Assembly: GCA_039024555.1 (NCBI GenBank)
Contig: JBCCQQ010000008.1
Location: forward strand, 72,736 to 136,735
Direction: 5' to 3'
Length of the DNA: 64,000 nucleotides
From: Cyanobacteria bacterium P01_D01_bin.156
GTDB taxonomy: Bacteria; Cyanobacteriota; Cyanobacteriia; Phormidesmidales; Phormidesmidaceae
Shown here: positions 14,901 to 40,275 of the stretch, piece after piece
Layout: every line of letters starts with the position of its first letter
How positions within the stretch are numbered: position 1 is the first letter of the stretch
The notes under the pieces: model-generated
The model's database searches: none
What the model was told of the DNA's origin: nothing
The model's input: only the letters and a program-made list of their open reading frames with translations
Program-made: the position numbers and the translations under genes

Positions 14901-16796
14901 GAACAGGATAATCGGCGGCTGGTAGCCTATGTAGTGCTATCAGATTTATCGAATAGTGAGGAGTGGGGAATAGCTATTAAGGGGAGTGAGGGATTGCGAT
15001 CGCACCTTCAAGCCACCCTCCCCGACTATATGGTGCCAGCTTTCTTTATCCCCTTAGAGAGCCTGCCCCTGTTACCTAATGGCAAGCTAAATCGCAAGGC
15101 TTTACCAACGCCCGTTCTTCCCAAACAGGTCTCAACTGAGACCGTTACCCAAACCGAAACAGAGCAAAAGCTAGTCTCTATATGGCAAGGGCTACTGCAA
15201 CAATCTGTCGGTTTACACGACAACTTCTTTGAATTGGGCGGAGACTCTATCCTGGCAATTCAGGCCATTGCCCGTGCACAGCAAATGGATCTGCACTTTT
15301 CTCCTAGAGATTTGTTCCAGTATTCCACTGTTGCTCAGCTAGCAACTATTGCCCAAAAGCATCCCCAGAGACTGGTATCACAAAAGCCGATTGTAGGGAC
15401 TATCCCCCTTACCCCTATTCAGCACTGGTTCTTTGAGCAACAGCTAAATCATCCTCACCACTGGAACCAGTCGGTGCTACTCAAGGTGCAGCAGCCCCTG
15501 GAAACAGAGATTCTTTCCAAGGCACTGGGTCAGCTAATGACTCACCACGATAGTCTCAGAGCTACCTTCTACCTAACAGAAACCGGTTGGCAACAGCGCT
15601 ATGGTGAACCGTCAACAGCCGTTCCAATCGCCATCATTCGCAAACCGGTAGGCGATTCAACCGTAGAAAAAGAGATTATCAATACGGCCAACGCTGCCCA
15701 GGCCAGCTTTAATCTTGCTAAGGGGCCGCTATGGCGAGTGGTTTATTTTGAGCTAGAAACATCGACAGAAATAGAACGACGGCTGCTAATTATCTGTCAT
15801 CATCTCCTGGTGGATGGTATCTCCTGGCGCATTTTGTTAGAAGACTTACAGCGGCTCTACACCCAGCTAAACCAGACTGGTATGGCTCAACTGCCCTTAA
15901 AAACTCTCCCCAATCAGGACTGGGTAAGCCAGCTAGAGAGTAATGATAAATCATCAGAACTTACCTACTGGAAAACTGTTACTCAATTATCAATACCGCC
16001 GCTGCCCCGAGACTTTACCGATGGAACCAATATAATGGCCCTGGCAGATACCGTATCCGTTAACCTATCAGAAACAGATACCCAGCGATTGCTACAGCAG
16101 GTACCTGCTGCATATAACGTCCATATTAATGATTTACTACTAACGGCTTTAGGGCTGGCCCTCGAACCTTGGGCTGGCAATCAACTACGCCTTGCCATGG
16201 AAGGTCACGGACGCCCTGCTGATGTGGATCTTACCCGCACCGTAGGCTGGTTCACCACGCTGTATCCGGTACTTTTGGAAATACCCGAAGGTGATCTCAG
16301 TACTACTATTAAGGTTGTCAAAGAGACATTACGAGCAGTACCTGACCAGGGACTGGGCTACGGCATTTTACGCTATCTCCAAGCTAACGATAACAATCTT
16401 GAAACAGATATTCCCATTCGCTTTAACTACCTGGGGCAAACCGATCAGCTATTCTCAGGTAGCAATTTATTTGTTCCTGCCACTGAACCAACTGGAGCAT
16501 CCCGCAGCCCCCACGACGACCGTGACATGCTAATCGAAATTAACGCCGTTGTTAGCCAAGGGATATTAAAGCTGAACTGGACCTATGGCCAAGAAATTCA
16601 TCATCGGGAGACTATCGAAAATTTAGCCCATAGCTATTTACACCAGCTTAAAGAATTGATTAATCACTGCTTGTCTTCCGAAACCGACCAGGGCTATAGC
16701 CCAGCAGATTTCCCACAGATGGACTTTGCCCAGGGTGAGCTGGATGATTTATTAAGCAGCCTGGATCTAGACGATGGGGGAGGTGTAATGTCATGA
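8898..16796 (+). CDS. NRPS: C-A(Gly)-T-C-A(Ala)-T-E
   Basis: A codes read as DILQLGMIWK (Gly) and DLFNNALTYK (Ala); GGDSI carrier motif typical before an E domain; E motifs HHLLVDGISW, EGHGR, RTVGWFT; C-terminal COM-like YSPADFP. Confidence 0.93.
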   Translation: MSATNSPDLKNLSPEQKRELLAKLLKKKAAKQPQRTAQKFPLSFAQQRLWFIDQLQTGQAVYTIPAALRLQGNLNVDILQRCLDEIVTRHEVLRTQFVTEAGAPSQQVQPPTNVNLPVIVLDGASDNLEQQIRPYLKALVELPFDLATGQLLRCQLIRLSATDHVLALGVHHIVADYWSLRVFMKEIALLYQAFSQNQPSPLPALPIQYADYAVWQQQNQQTSQSQLDYWLEKLANPPSILQLPTDHPRPAVQTFHGARHSFALSKPLSDQLSALGQQHQATLFITLLAAFKVLLYRYSGQGDILVGSTVTNRDRTELQNLIGLFVNNLVFRSQIDAQLTFKQLLDQVKRTALDAYAHQEVSFEQVVDALQVERQLSRNALFQVMFILHNTPKASVSLPELNVSALEFTNNASRFDLSLDIYETEARLTGVFEYNTDLFDADTITRLAVHFETLLEGIVAAPNTTVGHLPLLPPSELETLASWNQTKIAIPEVCAHKLVEAQAARTPDASALTVDNKLPERIASQFVAPEKLWTYQQLNQSANRVARFLKTQGAVPGSRIALAFNRSAELVITLLAVLKLGGTYIPLDPTHPTERLRHILQDAHVAMVLTADKAFAEDSLPSETKLLDLKQHTELIEQQSFENLGNTTTAEDLAYIIYTSGSTGKPKGVPIRHRSLVNLLSSMAKSPGITADDALLAVTTVAFDIATLELLLPLTVGARLAIASPDTVCDASRLMSQIANDGITIMQTTPATWRLLLDSGWKGKETLKILCGGEALDPGLAQQLLPCSSELWNMYGPTETTIWSGALHITEEKLTGQTVPIGGAIDNTQFYILDAQHQPVPIGVSGELCIGGAGLSPGYLNRDELTAEKFVLNHFSGEQGSREAEERRNDFRLPTSDFRLYKTGDLARYRPNGTLEYLGRLDHQIKLRGFRIELGDIETALTQHKDIDQAFVVLWKNSSDDPQLVAYCKVWSTAIAKDPQTIRQHLSEQLPAYMIPTAYVLLEEFPLTPNGKVDRKALPEPIIESGSASAVPLKTETEQQLAAIWSEVLNQNAISASDNFFELGGHSLLAARVMARLQPIFGVTVPLRALFESSCLSALAKVIDQELGQQNFVPVQPIARTQPLPLSYAQQRQWVLAQLEPDSAFYNIPAAVRLEGDFSLEIFKESLEILCDHHESLRTGFKSVNGAAELFILPQVKPVVTYRELQGATKETITNYLETEIQKAFDLEAAPLMRVQVLRTDIHTHVVSLVLHHIIADAWSVGLLIKELVAVYDQLQKKQPVALAPLSIQYVDYATWQQNLDTKQQLNYWQQQLADSLPLLPLPTDYPRPATQQFSGSSHQFTFTEAQTTALKNLSQQHSATLFMTLLAAFKVLLHRYSGANDVLVGTPIAHRPQAELENILGMFVNTLVLRSDFSEEISFNQLLDQVKETSLAAYANQDVPFEQVIDVLNIPRNWSHSPLFQVMFVWQAATPDSLEMQGADLIWSPISLESNTTKVDLTLMMAEKDGYLSGRFEYRQDLFKSGTIEAMAEAFCTLLDAVVESPTATVSGLPLLHKHQQEQLVQWNQTHQTYGSNICLHQLFEKQVKHTPEATALVAADKRLSYQELNARSNKLAAYLISIGIGPEARVGVCLDRSEHLIVALLGILKAGGAYVPLDPAYPPSRLNYILEDADVSVVVTEQQYHELTEKGSFKVVLTSSEEISYQNTDTIVTNVQPHNLAYIIYTSGSTGQPKGVAIEHHSPVALVNWAKEVFSPDQLSGVLAATSICFDLSVFEIFVTLSSGGTIILADNVLQVTDIPAANEITLINTVPTAIAELLRIEGIPKSVSTINLAGEPIPPVLVQQLYAVDSVQQVFNLYGPSEDTTYSTYTLLSPDDAVVPIGYPIANTQTHVLDKHYNPVPIGMTGELYLAGDGVARGYWNRPELTQDKFVTSDRLTVGSTYPTAYKTGDLVRHRPDGQLEFLGRIDSQVKLRGFRIELGEIEAVLLQHPDVVQVAARVWTDEQDNRRLVAYVVLSDLSNSEEWGIAIKGSEGLRSHLQATLPDYMVPAFFIPLESLPLLPNGKLNRKALPTPVLPKQVSTETVTQTETEQKLVSIWQGLLQQSVGLHDNFFELGGDSILAIQAIARAQQMDLHFSPRDLFQYSTVAQLATIAQKHPQRLVSQKPIVGTIPLTPIQHWFFEQQLNHPHHWNQSVLLKVQQPLETEILSKALGQLMTHHDSLRATFYLTETGWQQRYGEPSTAVPIAIIRKPVGDSTVEKEIINTANAAQASFNLAKGPLWRVVYFELETSTEIERRLLIICHHLLVDGISWRILLEDLQRLYTQLNQTGMAQLPLKTLPNQDWVSQLESNDKSSELTYWKTVTQLSIPPLPRDFTDGTNIMALADTVSVNLSETDTQRLLQQVPAAYNVHINDLLLTALGLALEPWAGNQLRLAMEGHGRPADVDLTRTVGWFTTLYPVLLEIPEGDLSTTIKVVKETLRAVPDQGLGYGILRYLQANDNNLETDIPIRFNYLGQTDQLFSGSNLFVPATEPTGASRSPHDDRDMLIEINAVVSQGILKLNWTYGQEIHHRETIENLAHSYLHQLKELINHCLSSETDQGYSPADFPQMDFAQGELDDLLSSLDLDDGGGVMS
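11524..11597 (+). repeat. Intragenic octamer (CAGGGGAG-like)x5 followed by heptamer (CTTCCGA)x4
   Basis: Seen directly before YKTGD of the Gly A domain. Confidence 0.92.
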
Positions 16797-19700
16797 ATGC
16801 CGTAGCCGCAAAACGCAATTCTATTGAGGATATTTATCCCCTGTCTCCCATGCAGCAAGGGTTGTTATTTCACACCCTGCTGTCACCTGCAGCTGGGGCC
16901 TACGTCCCCCAGGTGGTTGTGTCCTTTTCAGGCAGTCTAGATAGCCAACTGCTGCAACAGGCTTGGCAAACAATTCTCGAACGCCACAGTATTCTCCGCA
17001 CTGGCTTCTACTGGGAACAGAGGGACCAACCATTCCAGGTGGTACAGCGTTCTGTAGCGTTACCTTGGGTAGAGCAGGACTGGTCGAGTTTGTCAGCCAC
17101 CGAGCAGGCATCCAAGTTGACGGTATTGTTAGAATGCAACCGCAACGAGTCGTTTAATCTCAGTAAACCACCGTTGATGCGTTTGACTTGGGTGTCCTTG
17201 GGTAAAGGAGATTTGGGTGAAGAACGCTATCACCTGATTTGGTGCTATCACCACTTAATTCTAGATGGATGGTCTAGCAGTCAATTACTAAAGGAAGTAT
17301 TCCAGCAGTATTTTATTCTGACGGGTACTCTGCCCTCCTTAACAGCTACACCGGCTAAACCCTATGGAGAGTATATCGCCTGGTTAAATCAGCAGGATAA
17401 AACCGCTGCCCAAAACTTTTGGGAAACCTATCTCAGCAATTGGCAGGGACCGACAGCATTACCAATCCTTCAGACTGAGCGTCCTCAAACAGGATCTCTC
17501 GAACAACAGCAGTATGTAATCTCCGCAGAGGCGACCCAAGTGCTGCGAGACTTTATTCAGCGCTACAAAATCACATTAAATACCCTAATACAGGGAGCAT
17601 TGGGTCTACTGCTCAGTCGCTACACCAATAGCCATGATGTTGTTTTTGGAGCTACCTGTGCCGGACGTCCGACAGAACTAGCCGGATCGCTATCCATGGT
17701 GGGGCTATTTATCAACACGCTGCCTGTGCGAGTTCAAGTTAAGCCTCAAGCAACTGCTGCTAGCTGGCTACAAGATTTAGTTGCACAGCAAACAGAGACC
17801 ATTACCTATGAGTATGTCTCCCTGAGAGAACTGCAAGCCTGGAGCAACGATGGCCGTTCTCTATTTGACTGTTTGTTGGTGTTTGAGAGCTACCCAGTGG
17901 CAACAGACATGTTCCAGGGGCAAACGGCCTTTAAGCTGGACGATATTCAGTTTAATGAATGGACCCATTTTCCCCTAACGTTGCTGGTATCCGAAGGAAA
18001 AGAACTGGCGATTACGGCAAAATATCGTTCTGAACAAATCTCACCGGAAGCCATCACCCGACTGCTAGGACATTTGAATAATGTTCTACTGGGACTGGCT
18101 CAACATCCGAAAGGAAATCTACAAGATATCGACCTACTATCGGCGACAGAGAAACAACAGCTAACCGAGTGGAATCTTACCCAAGCCAACTACCCGCTAG
18201 GGCAGGTACTGCCAAATTTGTTAGCACTGCAGGCAAAGAAATCACCCAGTACTACGGCAGTTATTTTTGAGGATCAGGCCCTTACTTATCAAGAACTGCA
18301 TCAAAAAGCCAACCAGTTAGCCCATCACCTCCAAAGCCAAGGCATTGCCTCTGAGCATCGCGTTGGCATTTATTTCCAGCGTGCTCTAGGTATGACGGTG
18401 GCAATTTTGGCGGTAATCAAAGCAGGTGCTGCCTACGTGCCTCTTGACCCAGAATATCCTGCCGCGCGTCTGCATTGGATGCTAGAGGATGCCGATATAA
18501 CAGCAGTGATTATAGACAAGCTCCTGAATTTACCACCGTTACCAGACACTGTTGTCACCATTGATGTCACAGATGGTTCGCAACAACCTTCTACAGAACC
18601 AAAGCATGGGCTAACGCATGAGAACAGCGCCTATAACATTTATACCTCTGGGTCTACAGGCAAGCCTAAGGGCGTGATTAACACTCATCGGGGATTGGTG
18701 AATCGACTGTGCTGGATGCAAGAAGCCTATGGCCTAACTGAGGAGGAACGTATTCTACAAAAAACCCCCCTAAGCTTTGATGTGTCGGTATGGGAACTAT
18801 TCTGGCCATTGCTGAATGGTGCCACTCTGGTTATCGCTAAGCCTGGAGGCCATAGGGACAGCACCTATCTTGCAAAAACAATCTGTCAGCAGCAGATTAC
18901 GACAGTCCACTTCGTCCCCAGCATGTTGGCCGCATTCCTAGAAGACCCGGATGTAAGCACCTGCACGTCTCTACGTCGGGTAATTTGCAGTGGTGAAGCC
19001 CTTTCGCCAGCGCTACAAAAACAGTTCTTTGAAAAGCTACCCAACACAGAACTGCATAATCTCTACGGTCCAACCGAGGCCGCCATTGACGTCACTGCCT
19101 GGCAATGCCAGCCCGGTGAGGCAACAGTGCCCATCGGTCGGCCCATTGCTAATACTCAAATTCATCTATTAGACCAGGACAACAATTCAGTCCCCATCGG
19201 TATTCCTGGAGAACTCCACATCGGCGGTGCAGGCGTAGCACGAGGATATTTGAACAGACCAGAATTGACAGCAGAGCGATTTATAACGAATCCATTTTTT
19301 GAAATTGGAAGTCGAAAGTTGGAAGTTGGAAGCAATACCTCGTCCTCCGCTCTTCGCTCTCCGTCCTCCGTCCTTTATAAGACCGGCGACCTCGCCCGCT
19401 ATCGTCCCGACGGTGCCATCGAATACCTAGGACGAAAAGATTTTCAGGTAAAGCTGCGAGGTATGCGGATCGAGCTAGGAGAAATTGAAGCGGCTCTAAA
19501 TGACTACCCTGGTGTGCAACAATCTGTTGTGCTGCTGCAGGACGATGTAGCAGGTGGACCAGCACTAGTTGCCTACCTGGTGGGTATCGCTGTTGGAGAT
19601 CTTAAACTAGCACTGACAGCTTTTCTAAAGCAGCGGCTTACTGAGGCCATGATACCCAAGGTATTCATCTCGATGGAGTCAATGCCCTTAACATCCAATG

Positions 19701-20041
19701 GCAAATTGGACCGACGAGCGTTACCTCAACCAGAGCAGATGGCCACGGTGGAGAAAGTTTTGCCTAGGAATAGGACAGAAACAGATATTGCTGCCATTTG
19801 GCAAGACATCTTACAAACTGATGCAATTGGTATCTACGAGAACTTTTTTGAACTGGGGGGCCATTCCCTAACTGCCACTCGTATGAATACGCGACTGCGA
19901 AAACAGTTTGAACTGAATTTGCCGCTCCATAGCGTGTTTGAATATCCCACCATTGAGGTCCTTGCAGTGCATATTGATGCCCTGCGCATTGCCGCTAAGC
20001 CCACCGAGTCACCCACTGGCCATAAGGAGATTGAGCTATGA
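16793..20041 (+). CDS. NRPS: C(DCL-type)-A(Ser)-T
   Basis: IEDIYPLSPMQQG start and HHLILDGWS (downstream of E); A code DVWHISLIDK (Ser); GGHSL; C-terminal acidic SLiM GHKEIEL. Confidence 0.92.
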   Translation: MNAVAAKRNSIEDIYPLSPMQQGLLFHTLLSPAAGAYVPQVVVSFSGSLDSQLLQQAWQTILERHSILRTGFYWEQRDQPFQVVQRSVALPWVEQDWSSLSATEQASKLTVLLECNRNESFNLSKPPLMRLTWVSLGKGDLGEERYHLIWCYHHLILDGWSSSQLLKEVFQQYFILTGTLPSLTATPAKPYGEYIAWLNQQDKTAAQNFWETYLSNWQGPTALPILQTERPQTGSLEQQQYVISAEATQVLRDFIQRYKITLNTLIQGALGLLLSRYTNSHDVVFGATCAGRPTELAGSLSMVGLFINTLPVRVQVKPQATAASWLQDLVAQQTETITYEYVSLRELQAWSNDGRSLFDCLLVFESYPVATDMFQGQTAFKLDDIQFNEWTHFPLTLLVSEGKELAITAKYRSEQISPEAITRLLGHLNNVLLGLAQHPKGNLQDIDLLSATEKQQLTEWNLTQANYPLGQVLPNLLALQAKKSPSTTAVIFEDQALTYQELHQKANQLAHHLQSQGIASEHRVGIYFQRALGMTVAILAVIKAGAAYVPLDPEYPAARLHWMLEDADITAVIIDKLLNLPPLPDTVVTIDVTDGSQQPSTEPKHGLTHENSAYNIYTSGSTGKPKGVINTHRGLVNRLCWMQEAYGLTEEERILQKTPLSFDVSVWELFWPLLNGATLVIAKPGGHRDSTYLAKTICQQQITTVHFVPSMLAAFLEDPDVSTCTSLRRVICSGEALSPALQKQFFEKLPNTELHNLYGPTEAAIDVTAWQCQPGEATVPIGRPIANTQIHLLDQDNNSVPIGIPGELHIGGAGVARGYLNRPELTAERFITNPFFEIGSRKLEVGSNTSSSALRSPSSVLYKTGDLARYRPDGAIEYLGRKDFQVKLRGMRIELGEIEAALNDYPGVQQSVVLLQDDVAGGPALVAYLVGIAVGDLKLALTAFLKQRLTEAMIPKVFISMESMPLTSNGKLDRRALPQPEQMATVEKVLPRNRTETDIAAIWQDILQTDAIGIYENFFELGGHSLTATRMNTRLRKQFELNLPLHSVFEYPTIEVLAVHIDALRIAAKPTESPTGHKEIEL
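19305..19375 (+). repeat. Intragenic degenerate heptamers (TTGGAAG-like)x4 and (CTCCGTC-like)x5
   Basis: Seen directly before YKTGD of the Ser A domain. Confidence 0.8.
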
Positions 20042-23000
20042 GTATGACCAGCGATCGCACCATTGAAACATTTCTGGCCGATCTTGCTCGCCAGGACATT
20101 AAGCTATGGCTAGACGGAGAAAAGCTCAGGTGCAGTGGTCCAGAAGAACTGCTTACCGACAACTTTAATGCAGGTCTAAAGGCTCGTAAGGCAGAGATTA
20201 TTGATTTTTTGCAACAGGTACATGGGCAATCGGCCACACCTAAAATTACTCCCGCCGAGCGCAGTGGCTCTCTGCCACTTTCCTTTGCCCAGCAGCGTCT
20301 GTGGTTCCTAAATCAGATGCAGCCTGAGGCGGCAGTGTATAACCTGCCCATGGCCATTGAAGTAGAGGGCTTTCTGGATGTAGCTGCCTTTACCCAGAGC
20401 CTAAACGACATTGTGCGTCGTCATGAAGCATTACGCACTCGATTTATTACCGTTGATGGTCAGCCAACCCAGGTGGTGGAAGCACCGGTCCCCGTCACCA
20501 TAGAAGAAATAAATTTACAGAATAAGGCTGATGTAGAAGCCCAGGTAAGACAGGCGGCGATTGTTGCTGCTCAGAAGCCTTTTGACCTGAGCCAAGACCA
20601 GCTACTGCGGGTTACTCTACTACGCCTAAGTGAAGCAAAGTCGGTGGTGTTGTTCACCCTCCACCACATTATTGCCGATGGCTGGTCCATGGAGATTTTG
20701 ATCCAGGAACTAGGGGCAGGCTATCGAGCTGCGTTGATGGGGCAGATGGCATCTTTACCCAACTTGTCAGTACAGTACGCTGATTTTTCGGTGTGGCAGC
20801 GCCAGTGGCTTCAAGGAGAGAATCTAGAAAAACAGCTTAACTATTGGCGAAATCAGTTAGACATTCACCAGCCTGTGCTGCAACTGCCGACAGATTTTCC
20901 TCGGGCCAGGGTGCAAACCTATCGGGGTGCAGTGAAACAGTTTTCATTGTCACCAGAATTAAGTCAAAAACTCACTGCCCTTGCCCAGAGTCAATCAGCT
21001 ACAGTCTTTATGACTCTACTGGCGGCATTCAAGGTACTGCTTTATCGGTATACAGGCCAAACGGACCTGGTGGTGGGCACACCCATCGCCAATCGTCATC
21101 GCGCCGAGGTGGAAGGGCTGATTGGATTATTTATCAATGTGTTGGCGCTGCGATCGCAACTCTCTCCCCAAGCTGGTTTTCAAGATCTCCTAGCTCAGGT
21201 AAAAGCCATTACTCTCAATGCCTACGACCATCAAGATCTTCCCTTTGAGAAGTTGGTGGATGAGCTGCAGCTAGAGCGAGATTTAAGCTACAGCCCTCTA
21301 TTTCAGGTCAAGTTTCGTCTGGAAAATGCCCCCCAAGAGACTCTCAGCTTACCGGGGCTAACCTTTAAGCGACTGCCCCAGGCGGTGACCACCGCCAAGC
21401 TAGACCTCAGTGTCGATCTATATGAAACTCCCAACGGCATTGTCGGTGGCTTTGAATACAACTGCGATCTGTTTAAGTCGGAAACCATTCAGCGGATGGT
21501 GCACCATTTTCAAATAATTCTGGCCTCCATTGTGGCTGCTCCAGATCGACCCATTGCTGAGCTCCCCATGCTTACCGAAACTGAACTGCAGCAACAGCTG
21601 GTGGACTGGAACACTACGGAGAAACCCTATCGCCAGAATAGCTGTTTCCACTATCTCTTTGAAGAACAGGTAGAGAAAACGCCTGGTGCGATCGCACTTA
21701 TCTACGACGACGGAACCACTCCTCAACAGCTGTCTTACCAGGAACTCAACCAGCGCAGCAACCAGCTAGCCCACCGCCTAATCTCTCTAGGCGTCAGCCC
21801 AGAAAAGATTGTCGGCATCTGCGTAGATCGCTCCCCTGAGATGATTATTGCTATGCTGGCTGTGCTTAAGGCCGGTGGAGCCTACCTACCCTTAGATCCC
21901 ACCTATCCGCCAGAACGTCTGGACTACATGCTCTCCGACGCCCTGGTAGCGGTACTGCTTACCGAGAGCAAATTCTCTTTTGACCTAAGCGCTCAGCGGG
22001 TAAACCTGGATACCCAATGGCCCCAGCATCAGCCCAATACTAATCCTGAGCATATCGTTGGCCCCAACAATCTGGTCTACCTGATTTATACCTCCGGCTC
22101 CACCGGTAAACCTAAAGGTGTCCTGATTCCCCACAGTGGTTTAGTCAACCTAACAGAAGACAAAATTCGCATCTGTCAAGTACGCCCTGGTGACTGCATC
22201 CTACAATTCTTCTCCTTTAGCTTTGATGCCTCTATTCCAGAAATCATCATGGCATTGGCCACAGGTTCAAAGCTTTTGCTGGCTCCGGCCACTACCATGC
22301 TGCCTGGCCCCGACCTGAAAAATCTCATCCAGCGGCACAACGTCACCCACATCACGATTACTCCGTCTGCCTTGGTGAGTGTACCCTACGATGATTTTCC
22401 AGAGCTGCGCATGGTGCTAGTCGGTGGCGAAGCTCCCAGTCCAGAACTCATTGAAACCTGGAGCCAAAACCGGCTATTTATCAATGCCTACGGTCCCACT
22501 GAAACCACTGTAAATGCCAGTATGGTGCCCTGCGGCAATGGCCATCCGGTGGAACCAACACTGTTACCCAGCACTAACAAACAGCTGTATATCCTGGACA
22601 ATAATCTCCAGCTGTTACCCATCGGCGTACCCGGTGAGCTACACATCGCCGGAGTGGGATTGGCCCGTGGGTATTTGAATCGTCCCGATCTAACAGCAGA
22701 ACGGTTTATTGCAAACCCATTTGCCAGGAAGCAGGGGAGCAACCGGAAGTCGGAAGTCGGAAGTCGGAAGTCGGAAGTCCACCCATCACCCACCCTCTAT
22801 AAAACTGGTGACCTTGCCACATACCTCCCCGATGGTCGCATTAAGATTCTGGGTCGCATCGACAATCAGACTAAGATTCGTGGCTTCCGCATAGAGCTGG
22901 GAGAAGTTGAGCGCATTCTACAGTCTCACCCAGATATCAAAACCAGCATTGTTGTGGTTAGAGAGGATAATGGCAACAAGCGACTGGTGGCCTACGGTGT

Positions 23001-23472
23001 GCCGATGGTGGCTAACGGCGCAACACCAACAGAAATTCGACAGTTTGTGGCAGAAACACTGCCTCAGTATATGGTGCCGTCAGTGTTTATATGGTTGCCT
23101 GCTCTACCGTTAACGCCCAACGGTAAGGTAGATACCAAGTCGCTGCCTGCACCCACTGTTGTCTCTAATCAGGAACAGGTAGCTCCTCGCAATGCCACAG
23201 AACAGACTTTGGCTGAGATTTTTGCCCAGGTGCTCTCTTTAAAGTCTGTAAGCATCTACGATGATTTCTTTGATTTAGGTGGTCATTCCTTACTGGCCAC
23301 ACAGCTTGTGGCTCAACTTCTCAATCAGTTCTCAGTGGAAATCACGGTGATTGATTTATTTGAGGCTACCACCGTAGCAGGGTTAGCCCAGCGGGTAGAG
23401 CAAAAACGACGCTTAGCTCAGATGCAGCTACCGGTAGACAGCGATGAAGAACGGGAGGAGATTGCATTATGA
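20038..23472 (+). CDS. Terminal NRPS: beta-hairpin docking (TubC_N-like)-C-A(Tyr-like aromatic)-T, no TE
   Basis: N-terminal FLADLARQDIKLWLDGEKLRC docking domain; HHIIADGWS; A code read as DAPTLGAVNK; GGHSL; ends in EEREEIAL with no TE or R domain. Confidence 0.88.
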   Translation: MSMTSDRTIETFLADLARQDIKLWLDGEKLRCSGPEELLTDNFNAGLKARKAEIIDFLQQVHGQSATPKITPAERSGSLPLSFAQQRLWFLNQMQPEAAVYNLPMAIEVEGFLDVAAFTQSLNDIVRRHEALRTRFITVDGQPTQVVEAPVPVTIEEINLQNKADVEAQVRQAAIVAAQKPFDLSQDQLLRVTLLRLSEAKSVVLFTLHHIIADGWSMEILIQELGAGYRAALMGQMASLPNLSVQYADFSVWQRQWLQGENLEKQLNYWRNQLDIHQPVLQLPTDFPRARVQTYRGAVKQFSLSPELSQKLTALAQSQSATVFMTLLAAFKVLLYRYTGQTDLVVGTPIANRHRAEVEGLIGLFINVLALRSQLSPQAGFQDLLAQVKAITLNAYDHQDLPFEKLVDELQLERDLSYSPLFQVKFRLENAPQETLSLPGLTFKRLPQAVTTAKLDLSVDLYETPNGIVGGFEYNCDLFKSETIQRMVHHFQIILASIVAAPDRPIAELPMLTETELQQQLVDWNTTEKPYRQNSCFHYLFEEQVEKTPGAIALIYDDGTTPQQLSYQELNQRSNQLAHRLISLGVSPEKIVGICVDRSPEMIIAMLAVLKAGGAYLPLDPTYPPERLDYMLSDALVAVLLTESKFSFDLSAQRVNLDTQWPQHQPNTNPEHIVGPNNLVYLIYTSGSTGKPKGVLIPHSGLVNLTEDKIRICQVRPGDCILQFFSFSFDASIPEIIMALATGSKLLLAPATTMLPGPDLKNLIQRHNVTHITITPSALVSVPYDDFPELRMVLVGGEAPSPELIETWSQNRLFINAYGPTETTVNASMVPCGNGHPVEPTLLPSTNKQLYILDNNLQLLPIGVPGELHIAGVGLARGYLNRPDLTAERFIANPFARKQGSNRKSEVGSRKSEVHPSPTLYKTGDLATYLPDGRIKILGRIDNQTKIRGFRIELGEVERILQSHPDIKTSIVVVREDNGNKRLVAYGVPMVANGATPTEIRQFVAETLPQYMVPSVFIWLPALPLTPNGKVDTKSLPAPTVVSNQEQVAPRNATEQTLAEIFAQVLSLKSVSIYDDFFDLGGHSLLATQLVAQLLNQFSVEITVIDLFEATTVAGLAQRVEQKRRLAQMQLPVDSDEEREEIAL
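22743..22777 (-). repeat. Intragenic heptamer (TCGGAAG)x5, the inverted form of CTTCCGA
   Basis: Encodes RKSEVGSRKSEV before YKTGD of the last A domain. Confidence 0.95.
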
Positions 23473-26400
23473 TCTCCCTCAAAGACTTCATCGGCTATCT
23501 TAAACCCCAGGTGGTAGCAGAACCGCTGATTCGTCAATGGTATGCCTGGAGCTATCTGATTCCACCAGCCACAGCGGCTCGGTATCTAACAGAGTCGCAG
23601 CTGAAAATTATGGAATCCTTTGTGGCTGCGCCAGAGGTTCATGCTTCTACGCTGAGAGATCCTGCTATGCAGGGAGGGCCTTTTATTAACCATGGACCTG
23701 GCCGAGTGGGTGAGGTCAAGACACTCTTAGAAAAGAGTAAAGCAGAGCAGGCAAAACTATTGGGTTTGAGCGATGCGATCGCAACCCTCACTCACCAGCT
23801 GAACCAACATCCTCCAGGCAAATCCCTAGAATCTCTTTATGCCCAGATACCGGAACCCCTCCAAGGCTACGTAGAGCTAGTTTATGATGCCGAAAACAAT
23901 CCATCTATTCGCTTTATTGAGGGTCTGTTGTACCGCAGCGAATATTACAACTCAGCGGACCAAAGTATTGCCTTACGCGTATACGCTAACAGCGACCAAC
24001 GTGCTTTTGTAATGAGCACTCCGCGTCTACCCGATAACGACAGTCTGTTTCTCCCCATCCCTTTTGTAGATTCCCGGTTAGATCAGCTTTTCCAAATGCG
24101 GCACACCCCTAATTCAGTGGAAGCCATGGCTGATTTATTGGAGATTACAGGCTCGAATCGTCCATTCTTTTACAATCTCTTTACCCCTGAAGCACCTAGA
24201 AAAAATCCGTCCTATCAAGATGACGGCGTTAGAATTCGCTACCTAGGACATGCCTGCGTGCTGATCGAAACCGCAGAAATCTCTATTCTCTGCGACCCGC
24301 TAGTGAGCTACGAACATCCTGCGGGAATGGAGCGCTACAGCTATAAGGACCTGCCAGAAACCATTGACTATGCCCTGATTACCCACAACCATCAGGACCA
24401 CGTCATGCTAGAAACATTGCTACAGCTGCGCCACAAAATCAAGCATATTGTTATCCCCAGCAGTCAAAAGGGCTCTCTCCTCGATCCATCCCTCAAGCTT
24501 GCCCTTCAACAAATCGGCTTTTCTCAAGTACGAACTTTAGACGAGCTAGAAAGCATCCCCCTTCCCGATGGTGAAATCATCAGCATTCCTGTTCTGGGGG
24601 AACACGGCGATCTCAATATCTCTACCAAAAACGCCTACTGGATTAACCTCAAGGGTCATTCCATACTGTGTGCCGCTGACTCTAACAATCTTGATCCTAG
24701 ACTCTACAGCCATATCAATCATTTACTGGGTGATCTCGATATTCTCTTTATCGGCATGGAATGCGACGGTGCCCCCTTCACCTGGGCCTACGGGCCGCTA
24801 CTGCCTCAGCCTACTCCCCACAAACAAGCCCAAACCCGTCGCCTTGATGGCTCCAATGCAGAACGAGCTCTTACCCTGGTTAACCAGCTCAACCCGCAAC
24901 AAGTTTACGTCTACGCTATGGGTCAAGAACCCTGGCTTACCTACATTACTTCTATCAATTACACCCCAGATTCCACTCCCATTATTGAATCCAATCAGCT
25001 AGTCAAACACTGTCAACAACAGAATCGCACTAGCGAACGTATGTTGGGACGAAAAGAAATCAAGCTACCCCCGAGCCAGACTAAACAAACGAAAAAGAAC
25101 AACCCCATTCCTGTCCTTTCCGAATTTCGAACTCCGAATTCCGAATTCCAAAGCCCACCGCTCCACCCCTCCACCGCGTCCCTACCCTCGTCATCCTCTG
25201 TCAAATCAATGACTGCTGACACCCTCACCCCCTTCCTCGCCCAACTTCAAAGCCTCGATATTCGCCTCTGGATGGACGGTGATACACTGCGCTGCAACGC
25301 ACCCAAGGGTGCCTTAACCCCAGAATTAACAATTAAACTAAAAGAACACAAACCAGAAATCATTGCCCTACTTAAAAACACCACGGCGCAAACTTCACCC
25401 TCGACACCAGCCAATCCTCAAGCAACATCTTCTGTTCAAGTGCCTGACTGGCGACAGGATCTCATTCTCCCAGCAGATATTATCCCGACTCCTCCGCTCC
25501 ACCACTCCACTACTCCCAAAAATATCTTCCTAACCGGAGCTACAGGATTCCTAGGGGCCTTTCTACTATATGAACTCCTACAACAAACTGATGCGACCAT
25601 CTATTGCCTGGTACGAGAATCTAAATCAGGCCTAGATACACTGGAACAGTGTCTGTCCAGCTATAGAATCTGGCAGCATAGTTTTGCCTCTCGTCTCATA
25701 CCAGTTTCGGGAGATTTAAGTGAGTCGTTTCTAGGATTATCTGAGACCTATTTTGAGGCTCTAACCGAACAAATTGATAGCGTTTATCACAATGGTGCTC
25801 AGGTTCACCATATTTCTCCCTACGCCCAGCTTAAAGCAGCTAATGTAAACGGCACCCGAGAAATTATTAAGCTAGCCTGCCAAGGGCGGCCTAAGTCCTT
25901 GCACTACACGTCCACGCTTAGTGTTCTACCGCCAACGCCGCTGCCGGGACAGGTCAAGCTCTATGAGCAGAGCAACTTGGGAGATTATCCTGTGCCAACT
26001 GGAGGCTACAACCGGACTAAGTGGGTAGCAGAACAGCTAGTGGCACAGGTTCGCGATCGCAACCTCCCTGTTACCATCTATCGCCCTGGTCCTATCTCTG
26101 GCCATAGTCAAACCGGCGTTTTTAATCGCAACGATTTTCTCTATCGGCTGATGCAGGGCTATGTGCAATCTGGCATGGCCCCGGAAGGAGAGATGCCTCT
26201 GGATATGCTGCCAGTGGACTACGTGAGTAAAGCCATGGTCTATTTATCCCTGCAACCCGAGTCCGTGGGTAAAGCCTTCCATCTAATTCACCCAGAATCG
26301 GCATCCTCAAATCTGTTATTTGAAGCATGTCAAAGGGCTGGCTATCCCATCCAGCGGGTGCCCTATGAGCAATGGTTTAAGAAACTAATGCTCATTGCCC

Positions 26401-26633
26401 AGGGAGATGAACAGCATGCATTGTATCCTCTAGTTTCCCTATTCTCATCACGGACTGGTGAGAGCAACGCGGCCAATCAGGCCCTGGAAGTTCCGTTTGA
26501 TACGGAGCAAACCTATACCGGATTGAAAAATGCTCCCTTTGATTTACCACGATTAAATCAATCGTTATTTGATACCTATCTGAAGGCCATGGTTGCAACC
26601 GGTACGTTATCGCCGCCCCCGGTGTTGACATAA
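23469..26633 (+). CDS. Fusion of CmlA-like MBL-fold diiron beta-hydroxylase, beta-hairpin docking domain and NAD(P)H-dependent thioester reductase
   Basis: N-terminal YLKPQVVAEPLIRQWYAW as in CmlA-type enzymes; THNHQDH (HxHxDH), GEHGDL, ADSNN; docking FLAQLQSLDIRLWMDGDTLRC; R-domain IFLTGATGFLG, HNGA, GYNRTKWVAE. Confidence 0.85.
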   Translation: MISLKDFIGYLKPQVVAEPLIRQWYAWSYLIPPATAARYLTESQLKIMESFVAAPEVHASTLRDPAMQGGPFINHGPGRVGEVKTLLEKSKAEQAKLLGLSDAIATLTHQLNQHPPGKSLESLYAQIPEPLQGYVELVYDAENNPSIRFIEGLLYRSEYYNSADQSIALRVYANSDQRAFVMSTPRLPDNDSLFLPIPFVDSRLDQLFQMRHTPNSVEAMADLLEITGSNRPFFYNLFTPEAPRKNPSYQDDGVRIRYLGHACVLIETAEISILCDPLVSYEHPAGMERYSYKDLPETIDYALITHNHQDHVMLETLLQLRHKIKHIVIPSSQKGSLLDPSLKLALQQIGFSQVRTLDELESIPLPDGEIISIPVLGEHGDLNISTKNAYWINLKGHSILCAADSNNLDPRLYSHINHLLGDLDILFIGMECDGAPFTWAYGPLLPQPTPHKQAQTRRLDGSNAERALTLVNQLNPQQVYVYAMGQEPWLTYITSINYTPDSTPIIESNQLVKHCQQQNRTSERMLGRKEIKLPPSQTKQTKKNNPIPVLSEFRTPNSEFQSPPLHPSTASLPSSSSVKSMTADTLTPFLAQLQSLDIRLWMDGDTLRCNAPKGALTPELTIKLKEHKPEIIALLKNTTAQTSPSTPANPQATSSVQVPDWRQDLILPADIIPTPPLHHSTTPKNIFLTGATGFLGAFLLYELLQQTDATIYCLVRESKSGLDTLEQCLSSYRIWQHSFASRLIPVSGDLSESFLGLSETYFEALTEQIDSVYHNGAQVHHISPYAQLKAANVNGTREIIKLACQGRPKSLHYTSTLSVLPPTPLPGQVKLYEQSNLGDYPVPTGGYNRTKWVAEQLVAQVRDRNLPVTIYRPGPISGHSQTGVFNRNDFLYRLMQGYVQSGMAPEGEMPLDMLPVDYVSKAMVYLSLQPESVGKAFHLIHPESASSNLLFEACQRAGYPIQRVPYEQWFKKLMLIAQGDEQHALYPLVSLFSSRTGESNAANQALEVPFDTEQTYTGLKNAPFDLPRLNQSLFDTYLKAMVATGTLSPPPVLT
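25118..25152 (+). repeat. Degenerate heptamer (TTCCGAA)x5 in the hydroxylase-reductase linker
   Basis: TTCCGAA TTTCGAA CTCCGAA TTCCGAA TTCCAAA. Confidence 0.85.
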
Positions 26634-26704
26634 TTTTTGGTTTCGTGCCCACCCTACAGTTTCCTCCTTGCCCCCTTCTCCCCTGCCCCCTTTCTCCTCC
26701 TACC

Positions 26705-27625
26705 ATGACCGAACGTTATACCGACTACAACAATTGGGCCTGGCTCTACAACAAGACCGTGGGACCAGACTATAGCAAGCCTCAACTGGCATTGCTTGAG
26801 AGGGTGTTGTTACCCCACATACCAAAGCAAGGAAAGATTTTAGATTTGTGCTGTGGTACGGGGCAATTGATTCAGCCACTAATTGAGGCTGGATATGATG
26901 TGGTGGGACTGGATGGCTCTGAGGAAATGTTGGCCTATGCCCGGCAGAATGCGCCCCAGGCTGATTTTCTCCTAGAGGATGCCCGCACCTTTGATTTGGA
27001 AGCCAGTATTGACGGTGTATTTTCCACCAGCGCTTCTCTCAATCATTTGATGAGTTTGCCAGAGCTGACCCAGGTATTTGAGCGAGTGTATCGGGCTCTG
27101 AAACCAGACGGCATATTTGTGTTTGACCTCAACCATCCAGAGCAGCTAGAACGCTGGTGGCAAGGGCAACCCACTGAAGGTGAAATTAGTCGCTACTTTG
27201 CTTGGATGATTACTCCTCGCTACGATTCCAACTCTGCTGAAGGAGCATTTGAAGTCACTATTTATCAGTCTTCCGTAAAATCCTCTGGCCTGATTAGACA
27301 GCTGTTGTTTCCCATTAAAAGGATGCTGTATACGCTATTAAGCCGCCCCCGCTTTATCGGTCTACGTCTGCGGGTTCTACAAAATTTTGCTGGCTTTGAA
27401 CCCCACTGGGAACAGAAAAAACTTAGCTATCCCGTCAAGGGCCACGAGATTAATGCTGTTATTACAGCACTTCAGCAGGTGGGATTTAAGGACATCTCGC
27501 TACAAACTATTGATGGTTCTTCAAAAATTGACGATCGCCATTCCGCCCATTTTATTTGCCAGAAATCGTCCTCTACTTGTTTAAATACAACGGCTGAAAC
27601 AGTCTCGGTTATGGATTCACCATAG
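26705..27625 (+). CDS. Class I SAM-dependent methyltransferase (cluster tailoring enzyme)
   Basis: ILDLCCGTG, GLDGSEEML, LKPDGIFVFD. Start moved to ATG 26705 because the upstream in-frame stretch is C/T-rich repeat DNA. Confidence 0.85.
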   Translation: MTERYTDYNNWAWLYNKTVGPDYSKPQLALLERVLLPHIPKQGKILDLCCGTGQLIQPLIEAGYDVVGLDGSEEMLAYARQNAPQADFLLEDARTFDLEASIDGVFSTSASLNHLMSLPELTQVFERVYRALKPDGIFVFDLNHPEQLERWWQGQPTEGEISRYFAWMITPRYDSNSAEGAFEVTIYQSSVKSSGLIRQLLFPIKRMLYTLLSRPRFIGLRLRVLQNFAGFEPHWEQKKLSYPVKGHEINAVITALQQVGFKDISLQTIDGSSKIDDRHSAHFICQKSSSTCLNTTAETVSVMDSP

Positions 27626-27695
27626 ATACTCAAGACGAGGGCAGGCAAAAGACCAGCCCCTTTTTCCATACCTGTTCTTCTGTTTACCCAAAACC

Positions 27696-29144
27696 ATGAC
27701 CACCACAATTTCCACACAACAACACCTCCAAGGAATCATAGAGCGTTACACTCAGCGTACTGTGAAATCAAAACAACAGGCTGCGGCCAACCGCTCTGTC
27801 GTGGCGGATAAAAGTTCCATTGGGTTTAATTTCTCCCTGGAAACGAAGGAGATGTGCTATCCAGTGGTGGCAGCAAGAGCTGAAGGTTCTCGACTTTGGG
27901 ATATTGATGGCAATGAATATATCGATATCCTGATGGGGCTGGGCACCTATCTATTTGGCCACAATCCTCCTTTTATTCGAGAAGCACTAGAAACCCAGTT
28001 AAAAAAAGGAATTCCCATCGGACCCCAAGCAGAGTTAGTGGGAAACGTTGCCCAACTAGTGAGTGCTCTCACGGGAATGGAGCGGGTCACATTTAGCAAC
28101 ACCGGCACTGAAGCGGTGATGACAGCTGTGCGCATTGCTCGTACGGCTACCAAGCGCAAAAAAATTGCGGTATTTACCAACTCTTACCACGGTCATTTTG
28201 ATGCGGCCCTGTTGCGAGCTCCCCTGAGCGAATATGCTCGCAAAAAGGCAGTAAGAGTAACCGGCTCTAAACCCTGGCTAGCGCCAGTTAACTGGCTACT
28301 CAAACAAAAAATTAACAGCCGTGCAGTACCGGCGGCTCTGGGTATTCCTCCAGCGGTAGCGCAGGATGTCATGGTTTTAGAATACGGCAATCCTCAGTCA
28401 TTAGCTGCCATTAAAGCCAACCGCAACAAGCTAGCAGCGGTTTTAGTAGAGCCTGTGCAAAGCCGCTGCCCGGAGCTACAGCCTAGAGATTTTTTACAGG
28501 AACTGAGATCGCTAACCAGCCAAATTGGTACAGCTCTAATTTTTGACGAAATGGTTACCGGCTTTCGGGTGCAACCTGGCGGTGCCCAAGCCCACTTTGG
28601 GATTCAGGCCGATCTCGCCACCTACAGCAAAATTGCAGGCGGTGGTTTACCCCTATCCATCATCGCCGGTAAATCTCGATTTATGGACCACATTGATGGT
28701 GGCCAATGGTGCTACGGTGACGACTCCCAGCCCCAGGTAAACACCACTTTCTTTGCTGGTACTTTCTGCAAACATCCTTTGGCTCTGGCCACGGCCCATG
28801 CTACCCTCAGCCGACTAAAGGCAGAGGGGACTGGGTTACAAACAGATTTGAACAAGAAAACAATTGATCTGGTAAATCGGCTTAACAGCTTTACCTCAGA
28901 GGCGCATTTGCCCGTGAGGTTTACCCAGTTTGGCTCCTTCTTTGCGATCGCACTCACCCAAAGCAAAATCTCCCCTCTGGCCACCAATCTACTGTCCTAC
29001 CATCTGCTCAACCGCGGCATCCACCTACGGGGCGGCGACAAAGGCGGTTTTCTCTCCACCGCCCATACCACAGACGACATCCACAAAATCTATACCGCCT
29101 TTTGCGAAGGTCTTACCGCCCTCCAACAAGCGAATTATATCTAG
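27696..29144 (+). CDS. PLP-dependent class III aminotransferase (GSA-aminomutase-like, as in PKS/NRPS AMT domains)
   Basis: WDIDGNEYID, NTGTEAVM, YHGH, LIFDEMVTGFR, YSKIAGGGLP (PLP lysine), FAGTF. Confidence 0.9.
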   Translation: MTTTISTQQHLQGIIERYTQRTVKSKQQAAANRSVVADKSSIGFNFSLETKEMCYPVVAARAEGSRLWDIDGNEYIDILMGLGTYLFGHNPPFIREALETQLKKGIPIGPQAELVGNVAQLVSALTGMERVTFSNTGTEAVMTAVRIARTATKRKKIAVFTNSYHGHFDAALLRAPLSEYARKKAVRVTGSKPWLAPVNWLLKQKINSRAVPAALGIPPAVAQDVMVLEYGNPQSLAAIKANRNKLAAVLVEPVQSRCPELQPRDFLQELRSLTSQIGTALIFDEMVTGFRVQPGGAQAHFGIQADLATYSKIAGGGLPLSIIAGKSRFMDHIDGGQWCYGDDSQPQVNTTFFAGTFCKHPLALATAHATLSRLKAEGTGLQTDLNKKTIDLVNRLNSFTSEAHLPVRFTQFGSFFAIALTQSKISPLATNLLSYHLLNRGIHLRGGDKGGFLSTAHTTDDIHKIYTAFCEGLTALQQANYI

Positions 29145-29189
29145 TCTCTTCGCCCTGCCCCCCCTTTCCCCTTATCCCTTCTAAGAACC

Positions 29190-29408
29190 ATGACCCAATC
29201 CACCGAAATCACCTATCGCGTAGTTATCAGCGACGAAGAACGTTACTCTATCTGGCCTGAATATAAAGAAATCCCTTGGGGTTGGAGGGCTGAAGGAAAA
29301 CTGGGTACTAAACAAGAATGTCTTGATTATATTGGCGAAGTTTGGACCGACATGCGCCCCCTCAGTTTGAGAAAAGCCATGGCGAAAAACCAGCAAGATA
29401 ATGATTAG
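29190..29408 (+). CDS. mbtH: MbtH-like protein
   Basis: [28 protein letters not shown]. Confidence 0.95.
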
Positions 29409-29949
29409 TCAGATTGCATCCACAATAGCTACTACCCATACCAGGGAAAGCTCGGTGACGCCAGAAACGACGCTTAATATGACGACACCAGATAACGCAC
29501 CCAAGACCCTGGATTTACTCGTGCCCTGGGATATTCCCCTGGAGTACTCGTTGAACGATACAGAAAAACAGAAGATTCAAATTATATTGGAACAGCTTTT
29601 GTACGCGTTAAATACAAAAGATTCTTCCCAGGCACTCGCTCAGGTAGAACAATTACTCACCACTCTGCCCATACCCAACACTAAGCTAGCCCAGGTGCAG
29701 TCCACCAAGACCTCTCTCAGCACCGACGATGTGGACGACTACGACCAGTACTTTGGTATTAATCATGTCCAAACTGACGAGACTTCCCTTTGTCTGGTGA
29801 GAGGACTATTAACTAACTGTCATCGATTTATTGCACTTTGCCATCAAAATTCTCAGCTTTCATCCAAGCATGTTGAACAACAAAAACAGGGGTTTATTAG
29901 CTATATCCATCTACTAGCAAGAGTCTTTTACCTGGAAGCGTTGTCATGA
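29401..29949 (+). CDS. Hypothetical helical protein coupled to the downstream heme protein (start uncertain)
   Basis: 182-aa ORF overlapping mbtH and sharing an ATGA with 29946; no recognised motif. Confidence 0.6.
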
Positions 29950-30509
29950 ATCAGACCACCCCCCAAGCCATCTGGCAAGGATTTCACTGGTCCTTTTTTA
30001 TCAATGTTCAGGGCTTAATTATCAGCCTTAGACGGTTTGAAGCTCAACTGGCCCTTGGCAACCTGGACCAAGCCGAACAAGAGTTAGTGACTGCAACAGA
30101 CTTGATGTTGGCATCTGGGGCCTCTATGGAACTGGCTGGCAGCTTTAGCCGGGATGCCTACGAACAAGATGTACGACAGTCCATGACACCCCCTCAAGTA
30201 CGCGCCGACAACTTTAGCGGTCTAATGTCGTGGGAACATGCGGCTCTGATGCAGATTTGGAAGCGACTGCGGCCAACATTTGAGGCCCTGCCCAATGAGT
30301 TAAAGCCACAACACGATAAGTTTGTACAAGCCTATTTTGAACTTGCCAAGTCTCATCGTGCTATCTGTGAAAAATTTGGTGGCAGCGAGGGTGGCAGCCT
30401 TCGATTTGGCCAAAGCTGCGCAGTCGCCACCCTCGATAAATTTAAAGATAGTCGTCTGGGATTAATTGCCCCTAAGCCACGGTCTGATTGTCCCTTTCAC
30501 ATGAATTAA
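29946..30509 (+). CDS. Putative heme-dependent aromatic (tyrosine) hydroxylase, SfmD/TyrH-like
   Basis: H98-x38-H137-xxx-C141; the Y...VR.SM....FSG segment and H..I..K...G.SL tail resemble the histidine-ligated heme aromatic oxygenase family (compared from memory). Confidence 0.65.
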   Translation: MNQTTPQAIWQGFHWSFFINVQGLIISLRRFEAQLALGNLDQAEQELVTATDLMLASGASMELAGSFSRDAYEQDVRQSMTPPQVRADNFSGLMSWEHAALMQIWKRLRPTFEALPNELKPQHDKFVQAYFELAKSHRAICEKFGGSEGGSLRFGQSCAVATLDKFKDSRLGLIAPKPRSDCPFHMN

Positions 30510-38286: not shown

Positions 38287-39459
38287 TTACCGTCTCGCCA
38301 AAACCTGCTGATTTGAGTTTATCCCTAACAACAGTACTATCGCTAAGATTGTTGTGGTCACACTAAAATAAAAGGGCGCAGCGACTGATACTTGGGTATA
38401 GAGCCATCCTGCAATCAAGCTAGCGGGCAGTGTAGCTAACCCAATCAACATATGAAAGGTGCCAACCTCCGCACCGCGCCGATCGGGATTTACCAGATCG
38501 GCAACAAATGCTTTTTGCACACCCCGCGTCAGAGTGGAATAAAGACCATAAAACATAAAAAGGCCCCATACTATTTCAGCCTTTTGGGCCAGGGCAAAGC
38601 CCAGGTATACCAAAGCAAAAACTCCATAGCCCGCTATTAATAAAGGACGACGGCCAATACGATCTGATAGTCGCCCCGCAGTGAAGCCTAAAAAGGTTTC
38701 TACTAGGTTAAACACTGCATAAAGCAACAACAATTGACTACCTGTAAGGCCCAGATCTTGAGATCGCAGTAACAAAAACGCATCCGACGAGTTCCCTAAA
38801 CTAAACAGCCCCACCACCAGCAAAAACTGCCGATAGGCTGGGCTGAGTCCTTTTAGCGTAAATTGCGGTCGCGATCGCGGCTTAGTATCACGCCTTGGTT
38901 CCCGCACCCACTTTAAAAGTACGAATACCCCCAGCAGGGCTGGGATAAACGCAAACGCAAACACCCCTCGATATCCCACCTGGCTCAATAACAACAGACC
39001 CAACAGGGGACCCAGTACTTCTCCAACCGTTTCCAGGCTATGGTGTAGCCCAAACGCTTGGCCTCGCTGTTCCGGTGCACAGTTTTCCGTAATCAGCACA
39101 TCCCGTGGAGCCGCCCGCAATCCTTTACCAAGACGGTCCACCAGTCTAGCGGCTAGCACCATCCCCCAACCGCTAGCTGCTGCTAACCCCAGCTTAGAGA
39201 GTGCTCCCAAACCATAGCCTGTTACTGCAAAGGGCTTACGTTGACCCACCCGATCCGACAGCCAACCAGAATAGAGCTTTAACAAACTGGCTGTACTCTC
39301 AGCAATGCCCTCAATTACCCCTACCGTCCATACTGGAGCCCCTAAAACCGATGTTAGAAAAATCGGTGTAATCGGGTACACCATTTTGCTAGCAAAATCA
39401 GTGCAAAGACTTACCCAGCCGAGGGCACGTACTGTCGGCGACAGCGTCGATTTAGGCAT
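38287..39459 (-). CDS. MFS transporter
   Basis: GWLSDRVGQRKP and GRLSDRIGRRP motif A copies; about 12 hydrophobic segments. Confidence 0.9.
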   Translation of the reverse strand: MPKSTLSPTVRALGWVSLCTDFASKMVYPITPIFLTSVLGAPVWTVGVIEGIAESTASLLKLYSGWLSDRVGQRKPFAVTGYGLGALSKLGLAAASGWGMVLAARLVDRLGKGLRAAPRDVLITENCAPEQRGQAFGLHHSLETVGEVLGPLLGLLLLSQVGYRGVFAFAFIPALLGVFVLLKWVREPRRDTKPRSRPQFTLKGLSPAYRQFLLVVGLFSLGNSSDAFLLLRSQDLGLTGSQLLLLYAVFNLVETFLGFTAGRLSDRIGRRPLLIAGYGVFALVYLGFALAQKAEIVWGLFMFYGLYSTLTRGVQKAFVADLVNPDRRGAEVGTFHMLIGLATLPASLIAGWLYTQVSVAAPFYFSVTTTILAIVLLLGINSNQQVLARR

Positions 39460-40231: not shown

Positions 40232-40256
40232 AGGCAGATACTGCACTCTAATGACT

Positions 40257-40275
40257 ATTAAAACTAAGTCTCAAT
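40257..40275. promoter_or_regulatory. Weak Fur-like box upstream of the PPIase-MFS genes
   Basis: ATTAAAACTAAGTCTCAAT. Confidence 0.35.

Follow-up and report, generated by a model that had tools for sequence, protein, structure and literature searches.

A putative split SfmD-type tyrosine hydroxylase at the end of a cyanobacterial siderophore cluster

Two small adjacent genes in the window (the whole 64,000-nucleotide stretch of DNA that was analysed) very probably encode a co-translated SfmD-type heterodimer that would hydroxylate tyrosine to DOPA for the catechol of a Dmaq siderophore. This reading is based on homology, motif conservation, genetic linkage, the existence of fused relatives and the content of the surrounding cluster, and from these we infer the attachment of heme, catalysis, the use of free tyrosine, the order in which the later steps occur and the identity of the product. 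The core of the original prediction, which had proposed a split SfmD-type heme tyrosine hydroxylase from the letters of the DNA, passed every computational test that we ran, with heme binding and catalysis as its predicted properties.

The gene pair and its likeness to the two halves of SfmD

ORF1 (29401..29949, + strand, 182 aa) is an FbnL-like candidate for the N-terminal, non-heme half of the split enzyme, and ORF2 (29946..30509, + strand, 187 aa) is the FbnM-like, predicted C-terminal heme-binding half. The two are coupled by an ATGA stop/start overlap at 29946..29949 (+ strand), as had been read originally, and the same overlap joins both halves in A. tumefaciens 15955 and A. vitis. Inspection of ORF2 also bore out the motif that had been claimed for it, with H98, exactly 38 intervening residues and then H137-R-A-I-C141, as well as the Y...VR.SM....FSG segment (Y72...V76R77.S.M80...F90S91G92). 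The spacing of 38 falls within the range of n = 37-40 by which we recognised the HxnHxxxC motif of SfmD-like proteins.

The description of the genes as orphans proved wrong. With a cut-off of E 0.001, 248 homologues of ORF2 were found, many of them named 'siderophore biosynthesis protein', and HMMER found 127 relatives of ORF1. Neither protein matched a family in local Pfam-A or NCBIfam, and a precomputed Pfam match to PF27188 was present on 120/120 ORF2 homologues, the best 120 of the 248. Within these same best 120 the motif spacing was always n = 38 (120/120), and H98, H137 and C141, the conservation of which had been named as a check, were invariant in 121/121 rows once ORF2 itself was included.

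Searching the PDB with phmmer, we found that residues 10-179 of ORF2 match SfmD (6vdp) 187-358 with an E-value of 1.2e-9, the sole match below E 1 among the two phmmer matches listed. In this alignment H98, H137 and C141 fall on SfmD H274, H313 and C317 (numbering of PMC8179489), which the available text of that paper gives as the two axial heme ligands and the thioether cysteine. The ORF2 model (pLDDT 87) has the TDO-superfamily fold, with Z-scores of 15.5 for MarE and 14.7 for TDO in a structure search whose best 50 rows did not include SfmD; in Foldseek, MarE and TDO likewise outranked SfmD (rank 34, TMq 0.56). By sequence and model, then, ORF2 has the C-terminal helical layer with a TDO-like fold that is characteristic of SfmD-like proteins. 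The proposed comparison with the TDO/SfmD/TyrH fold thus gave a TDO/MarE fold for ORF2, and for the ORF1 model the first three Foldseek ranks were SfmD entries. Among its relatives, ORF2 is 63% identical to the A. cylindrica PCC 7122 homologue P0085, 49.7% identical to A. fabrum C58 AAK89722.2 (P0264; E 5e-69 in a small pairwise database) and 28% identical to the C-terminal half of RenD.

The suggestion that the upstream ORF supplies the missing N-terminal half was supported by Foldseek, structural alignment, fused relatives, profile search and the complex model, even though the link between ORF1 and SfmD is weak by each single measure. The ORF1 model (pLDDT 83) has a folded core at about residues 30-180, with residues 1-28 disordered. 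Its three SfmD entries at Foldseek ranks 1-3 carry weak E-values of 0.05-0.27, and in an unfiltered VIA-align search the model aligned with the N-terminal layer of SfmD only (18-165; 141 residues, Z 9.1, rmsd 3.4). SfmD stood at rank 13 in that search, behind shorter generic helical-bundle matches, and had the most aligned residues among the best 50 rows; identity to the SfmD N-half was 16-19% in the structural alignments. The helices of Cys-loop receptors that topped the search (Z up to 10.5) were rejected as generic bundles with about 100 aligned residues and 5-10% identity. Neither ORF1 alone nor its 24-row profile gave a significant sequence match in the PDB.

Three of the 127 ORF1 relatives are 366-396 aa long, their first half resembling ORF1 and their second half ORF2 (39-44%), with a motif spacing of n = 41. 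We built a profile from ORF1 and 124 short relatives, leaving out the fused forms, and ran it with 1000 shuffled decoys as a control. With this profile, a full-length SfmD-like protein from Streptomyces parvulus scored E 4e-8 in its N-half, and the E-values were 8e-4 for Embleya, 0.015 for RenD and 0.54 for Azospirillum; the best of the decoys reached 0.65. Comparison with three full-length relatives by hhalign gave a probability of 60% and E 9e-5, and ORF1 shares 29% identity with A. fabrum C58 AAK89723.1 across 144 aa (P0249; E 7e-15 in a small pairwise database). An SfmD-like N-terminal layer thus appears to be supplied in trans by ORF1, each single score being modest. The two proteins do sum to 369 aa, as had been pointed out; the agreement of this total with a full-length enzyme is partly coincidence because residues 1-28 of ORF1 are disordered in the model.

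Multimer prediction, another of the checks proposed, yielded a heterodimer. The model of the ORF1-ORF2 complex scored 0.92 versus 0.02 for the best of three controls, its runs agreed in at least 97% of contacts, the pLDDT of the partners was at least 89, and the interface comprised about 150 contacts. The mark set for this score was reached by 116/157 solved pairs and by 2/215 mismatched pairs. Because likeness can carry the two parts of a split gene through such a test, the score may reflect likeness to SfmD more than binding.

The surrounding cluster and the proposed pathway

The pair forms the 3' end of a co-directional cluster that extends 5' beyond the window, and the window would hold the end of an uncharacterised catechol-siderophore cluster. 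Immediately upstream lies a gene for an MbtH-like protein (29190..29408, +, 72 aa; PF03621, E 1e-18), the end of which overlaps the start of ORF1 by 8 nt. It is preceded by genes for a class-III PLP aminotransferase (27696..29144, +; PF00202) and a SAM methyltransferase (26645..27625, +; PF13649), which are 58.5% and 41% identical, respectively, to the enzymes of the Agrobacterium cassette. Next upstream is a fusion of a CmlA-type di-iron beta-hydroxylase, a docking domain and a thioester-reductase (R) domain (23469..26633, +; PF18456, PF18563, PF07993, TIGR01746), and then the last NRPS module (C-A-T; 20038..23472, +), which would load Tyr or DOPA. This module shares 45-56% identity with the modules that close the cassettes of Agrobacterium, Acaryochloris and Gloeocapsa, and the pocket region is near-identical in the three for which it was printed. 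The end of a PKS and three NRPS genes of the same cluster occupy 17..20041 (+) and include a module with a nitroreductase-family (oxidase-type) domain.

Farther 5' on this contig, beyond the window, we found additional NRPS and PKS genes, a luciferase-like monooxygenase, an FAAL-acyl-CoA-dehydrogenase-ACP starter, a TonB-dependent receptor and, by eye, ExbB/ExbD- and TonB-like ORFs, as well as an MFS-like ORF. The monooxygenase, an FbnE-like flavin enzyme, is 62% identical to the one in Agrobacterium, which is presumably FbnE. Inspection by eye of the ORFs listed for the cluster showed no salicylate synthase.

Several genes beyond the cluster were also recorded. A tyrosinase-domain protein with an N-terminal hydrophobic segment (PF00264; 35854-37179) is encoded 5 kb past the cluster end, outside the operon. 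Farther downstream, 8-17 kb from the cluster (38287-47525), are genes for an MFS transporter, a sucrase/ferredoxin-like protein, a type II thioesterase and two ABC exporter-like proteins, and the Acaryochloris cassette is likewise flanked by a sucrase-ferredoxin gene and an MFS gene. In close relatives (L001:4108-5055, L003:10573-11511), a polysaccharide-pyruvyl-transferase-family gene follows shortly after the C-half; none is present there in the window.

By analogy with SfmD, we envisage a pathway in which the two-layer SfmD fold would be rebuilt from ORF1 as its N-terminal layer and from ORF2 as its helical heme layer. Heme would be held on C141 by one thioether, with H137 remaining on the iron and H98 acting as a labile ligand that would come off when substrate binds or on reduction. 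With H2O2, or O2 and a reductant, as its source, a single oxygen would be placed ortho to the phenol of L-tyrosine, which would make L-DOPA, and the last C-A-T module, aided by the MbtH-like protein, would add the DOPA residue to a lipo-polyketide-peptide. The R domain would then release an aldehyde that the aminotransferase would convert to an amine and the methyltransferase would N,N-dimethylate, and oxidative ring closure would yield the dihydroxy-tetrahydroquinolinium catechol of Dmaq, which would bind iron.

A variant, which we consider improbable though the strongest of the alternatives, is that the same heterodimer acts on carrier- or peptide-bound tyrosine, or that it also carries out the oxidation that closes the ring (catechol to o-quinone to quinolinium). 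The two genes are placed directly after MbtH, and a domain search of the cassette genes (20038-30509) found no tyrosinase or other dedicated oxidase. An older proposal, given in the available portion of a review (PMC6562677), has tyrosine incorporated first and hydroxylated afterwards, with a tyrosinase closing the ring, and speaks for a tethered substrate. Against it, SfmD is a 3-methyl-L-tyrosine hydroxylase that acts on free 3-Me-Tyr and Tyr, according to the accessible part of PMC8179489, and FbnLM is said to initiate synthesis by converting L-Tyr to L-DOPA in the text available of PMC12971057. Hydroxylation of free tyrosine by the heterodimer is the reading that we prefer.

The CmlA-type domain adds a second modification to this scheme. 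It matches the solved structures of CmlA di-iron beta-hydroxylases at E 3e-115 or better and keeps the THNHQDH motif (TH-N-H-Q-D-H). The substrates of CmlA are aromatic residues bound to a carrier, which it hydroxylates at the beta carbon. We compared 23 Dmaq-type cassettes, which were chosen since their loci reached far enough upstream and are not a random sample; the CmlA-reductase fusion was present in 18/23, each with the TH-N-H-Q-D-H motif, and the five without the CmlA domain were two Agrobacterium loci, Acaryochloris, G029 and G289. The loci with the fusion include the window, L003, L006, L034 and L073-L077. Because a CmlA-type domain is fused to the terminal reductase, a beta-hydroxylated Dmaq is predicted. 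We see roughly an even chance that the terminal Tyr/DOPA receives two hydroxyl groups, one on the ring from the split heme enzyme and one at the beta carbon from the CmlA-type domain while the residue is carrier-bound, which would give a norepinephrine-like unit and a lipo-polyketide-peptide siderophore with 4-hydroxy-Dmaq or a further aromatised form. The literature that we searched showed no such compound or CmlA-Dmaq gene arrangement; closed-access work and supplements may cover it. A chelator modified as the fusion predicts might be sought by mass spectrometry in iron-starved cultures.

Split and fused forms of the enzyme

A separate gene for the N-terminal half lay upstream of the C-terminal half in 26/26 ORF2-homologue loci (25 by BLAST and all 26 by profile), in two of which the C-half is frameshifted. 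The spacing between the halves varied between loci. In one locus (L020:3660-6209), a photosystem-II-antenna-family gene and a flavodoxin gene are inserted between them; we take these to be isiA/isiB-like, and the insertion is consistent with an iron-starvation context.

A survey of the phylum, using an even sample of 401 genomes that included the window's own, found a C-half match in 20/401 genomes and at 21 places in total: 13 adjacent split pairs, 6 fused genes and 2 places without an N-half within 1.5 kb. In one of the two unlinked genomes (G375), an intact N-half is kept after MbtH and aminotransferase genes on another contig (L060:4080-4619, L069); the C-half, also intact, is placed among unrelated genes. 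In the other (G267), no N-half match was found in the genome, and the C-half is shortened with its first His replaced by Arg; this lone copy is probably a decaying gene. It lies (L061:7877-9810) directly before a strong match to a pyridoxal-dependent decarboxylase (E 6e-121).

These loci bear on the original description of ORF2 as a stand-alone heme domain, and on a reading in which it would be a heme oxygenase by itself and ORF1 an unrelated accessory or dispensable. All of the heme ligands do lie within the C-half, and the two unlinked places among the 21 would agree with such an arrangement. We judge it very unlikely, however, and the description is unsupported because the N-half lies upstream in every one of the 26 loci, both genes are kept in G375 and the G267 copy is degraded; ORF1 is, moreover, homologous to the N-halves of the fused forms and shares the modelled interface of some 150 contacts with ORF2. 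The idea that one gene was recently broken by a frameshift, or that the assembly is at fault, as the 4-nt overlap of the frames and the existence of fused full-length relatives (six of the 21 cyanobacterial matches among them) might suggest, is refuted because the same split, with separate start codons and variable spacing, is conserved in all 26 loci and in Agrobacterium, and one locus carries two iron-stress-type genes between the halves.

A word-index search returned no longer (fused) ORF2 relative among its 832 candidates; fused forms were found through plasmid tblastn, the HMMER search with ORF1 and the 401-genome survey. In a tree of 32 C-halves, 17 split rows and the unlinked G375 fell on one side (support 85/89, unstarred) with the fused forms outside, a pattern compatible with a single fission event on the C-half tree. 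The split forms of Burkholderiales and Agrobacterium (L023, L027, L028) nest inside the cyanobacterial split forms, nearest to ORF2, with support of 90/84 and 86/45 (both unstarred).

The fused genes occur in other settings. In three cyanobacterial genomes, a fused SfmD-like gene is near a PLP-dependent decarboxylase gene, adjacent in two and two genes off in the third (L062:6859-9419, L065:8315-14653, L063:8177-13046), with a small A-T protein in two of these loci; such an arrangement points to a dopamine-type pathway separate from the siderophore cassette. In G249 (L064:2857-12941), a fused SfmD-like gene follows an NRPS-reductase and is accompanied by O-methyltransferases, MbtH and a Rieske oxygenase, and the locus resembles a tetrahydroisoquinoline-type cluster in a cyanobacterium.

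Comparison with known systems

The novelty implied by the original prediction does not hold. In the text available of PMC12971057, FbnL and FbnM are described as a two-protein heme enzyme that oxidises L-Tyr to L-DOPA at the start of Dmaq synthesis in fabrubactins, and antiSMASH detects Dmaq pathways, which make up less than 2% of metallophore regions, through FbnL and FbnM models. Judged by sequence, ORF1 and ORF2 fit a further pair of this kind. They are two adjacent small genes homologous to the C58 pair AAK89723.1 and AAK89722.2, to which we attach the names FbnL and FbnM from the order of the genes and the scores in the supplement, there being no labelled sequence, and they lie in a siderophore cluster with the expected NRPS-reductase, methyltransferase, class-III aminotransferase and MbtH genes. 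Searching plasmids with ORF2 by tblastn gave 24 records, of which 14 are Agrobacterium. In two Agrobacterium plasmid loci the gene order is NRPS-R, methyltransferase, aminotransferase, MbtH, N-half and C-half, and the proteins of the pair share 90% clusters with the adjacent C58 AAK89723.1 and AAK89722.2. In the part of the PMC12971057 supplement consulted, the Acaryochloris region NC_009926.1:178212-271394 scored 159.9 for FbnL and 287.6 for FbnM, and a metallophore region of A. cylindrica PCC 7122 scored 231.4 and 337.3. The homologous Acaryochloris pair, which shares 40% identity with ORF1 and 60% with ORF2, lies at 246679-247742, inside the scored region.

Like the fabrubactin cluster of A. 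fabrum C58, the window has the two small genes after MbtH, aminotransferase, methyltransferase and NRPS-reductase genes, the same H-x38-HxxxC motif and, in its cluster, an FbnE-like monooxygenase. Unlike the fabrubactin system, it comes from a cyanobacterial host, its R domain stands apart from the terminal C-A-T, joined instead to a CmlA-type domain that both Agrobacterium plasmid cassettes lack, and the PKS/NRPS front end of its cluster is different and longer, with the FAAL-acyl-CoA-dehydrogenase starter. The pair itself would be an ordinary addition to a marker family that is rare but already described; with the enzyme pair known, what remains new is the CmlA-reductase fusion in a widespread cyanobacterial variant of the cassette.

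Anachelin offers a cyanobacterial comparison. Dmaq was first found in anachelins, as the accessible text of PMC12971057 states, and Calteau et al. (PMC4247773, in the part available) assign the Red, MT, AmT and putative TyrH genes of the anachelin cluster to Dmaq production. The producer A. cylindrica PCC 7122 carries P0085, the 63%-identical ORF2 homologue, and anachelin itself carries Dmaq; it differs in its salicylate starter and short Thr-Ser-Ser core. The sister of P0085 on our tree belongs to G289, where a salicylate synthase is nearby and the CmlA domain is absent from the anachelin-like cassette. The fatuamide pathway was judged not relevant from the part of its source consulted.

The available part of PMC8179489 describes the single-thioether bis-His motif as specific to SfmD-like proteins. 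ORF1 and ORF2 share with SfmD (6VDP/6VDQ) and RenD both the HxnHxxxC motif and the two-layer architecture, ORF1 corresponding to the N-layer and ORF2 to the C-layer. SfmD is a single chain of tetrahydroisoquinoline antibiotic pathways that prefers 3-Me-Tyr, in contrast to the two chains and siderophore pathway here, where two genes take the place of one polypeptide of about 350-370 aa. Searches of PDB sequences with ORF1 and ORF2 returned no split SfmD form among the solved structures, and in the literature that we searched, which left most subscription journals outside, we found nothing linking SfmD with FbnM or with a split siderophore enzyme. If our reading is true, the pair is a natural two-chain SfmD with halves that can be studied separately. 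The ORF2 model also shares its fold with TyrH/LmbB2, MarE and TDO, TyrH (7kqt) being in the Foldseek list; unlike SfmD, these enzymes gave no sequence-level phmmer match to ORF2 in the PDB. By analogy, the ORF1/ORF2 enzyme would work like SfmD but belongs under the split FbnL/FbnM form.
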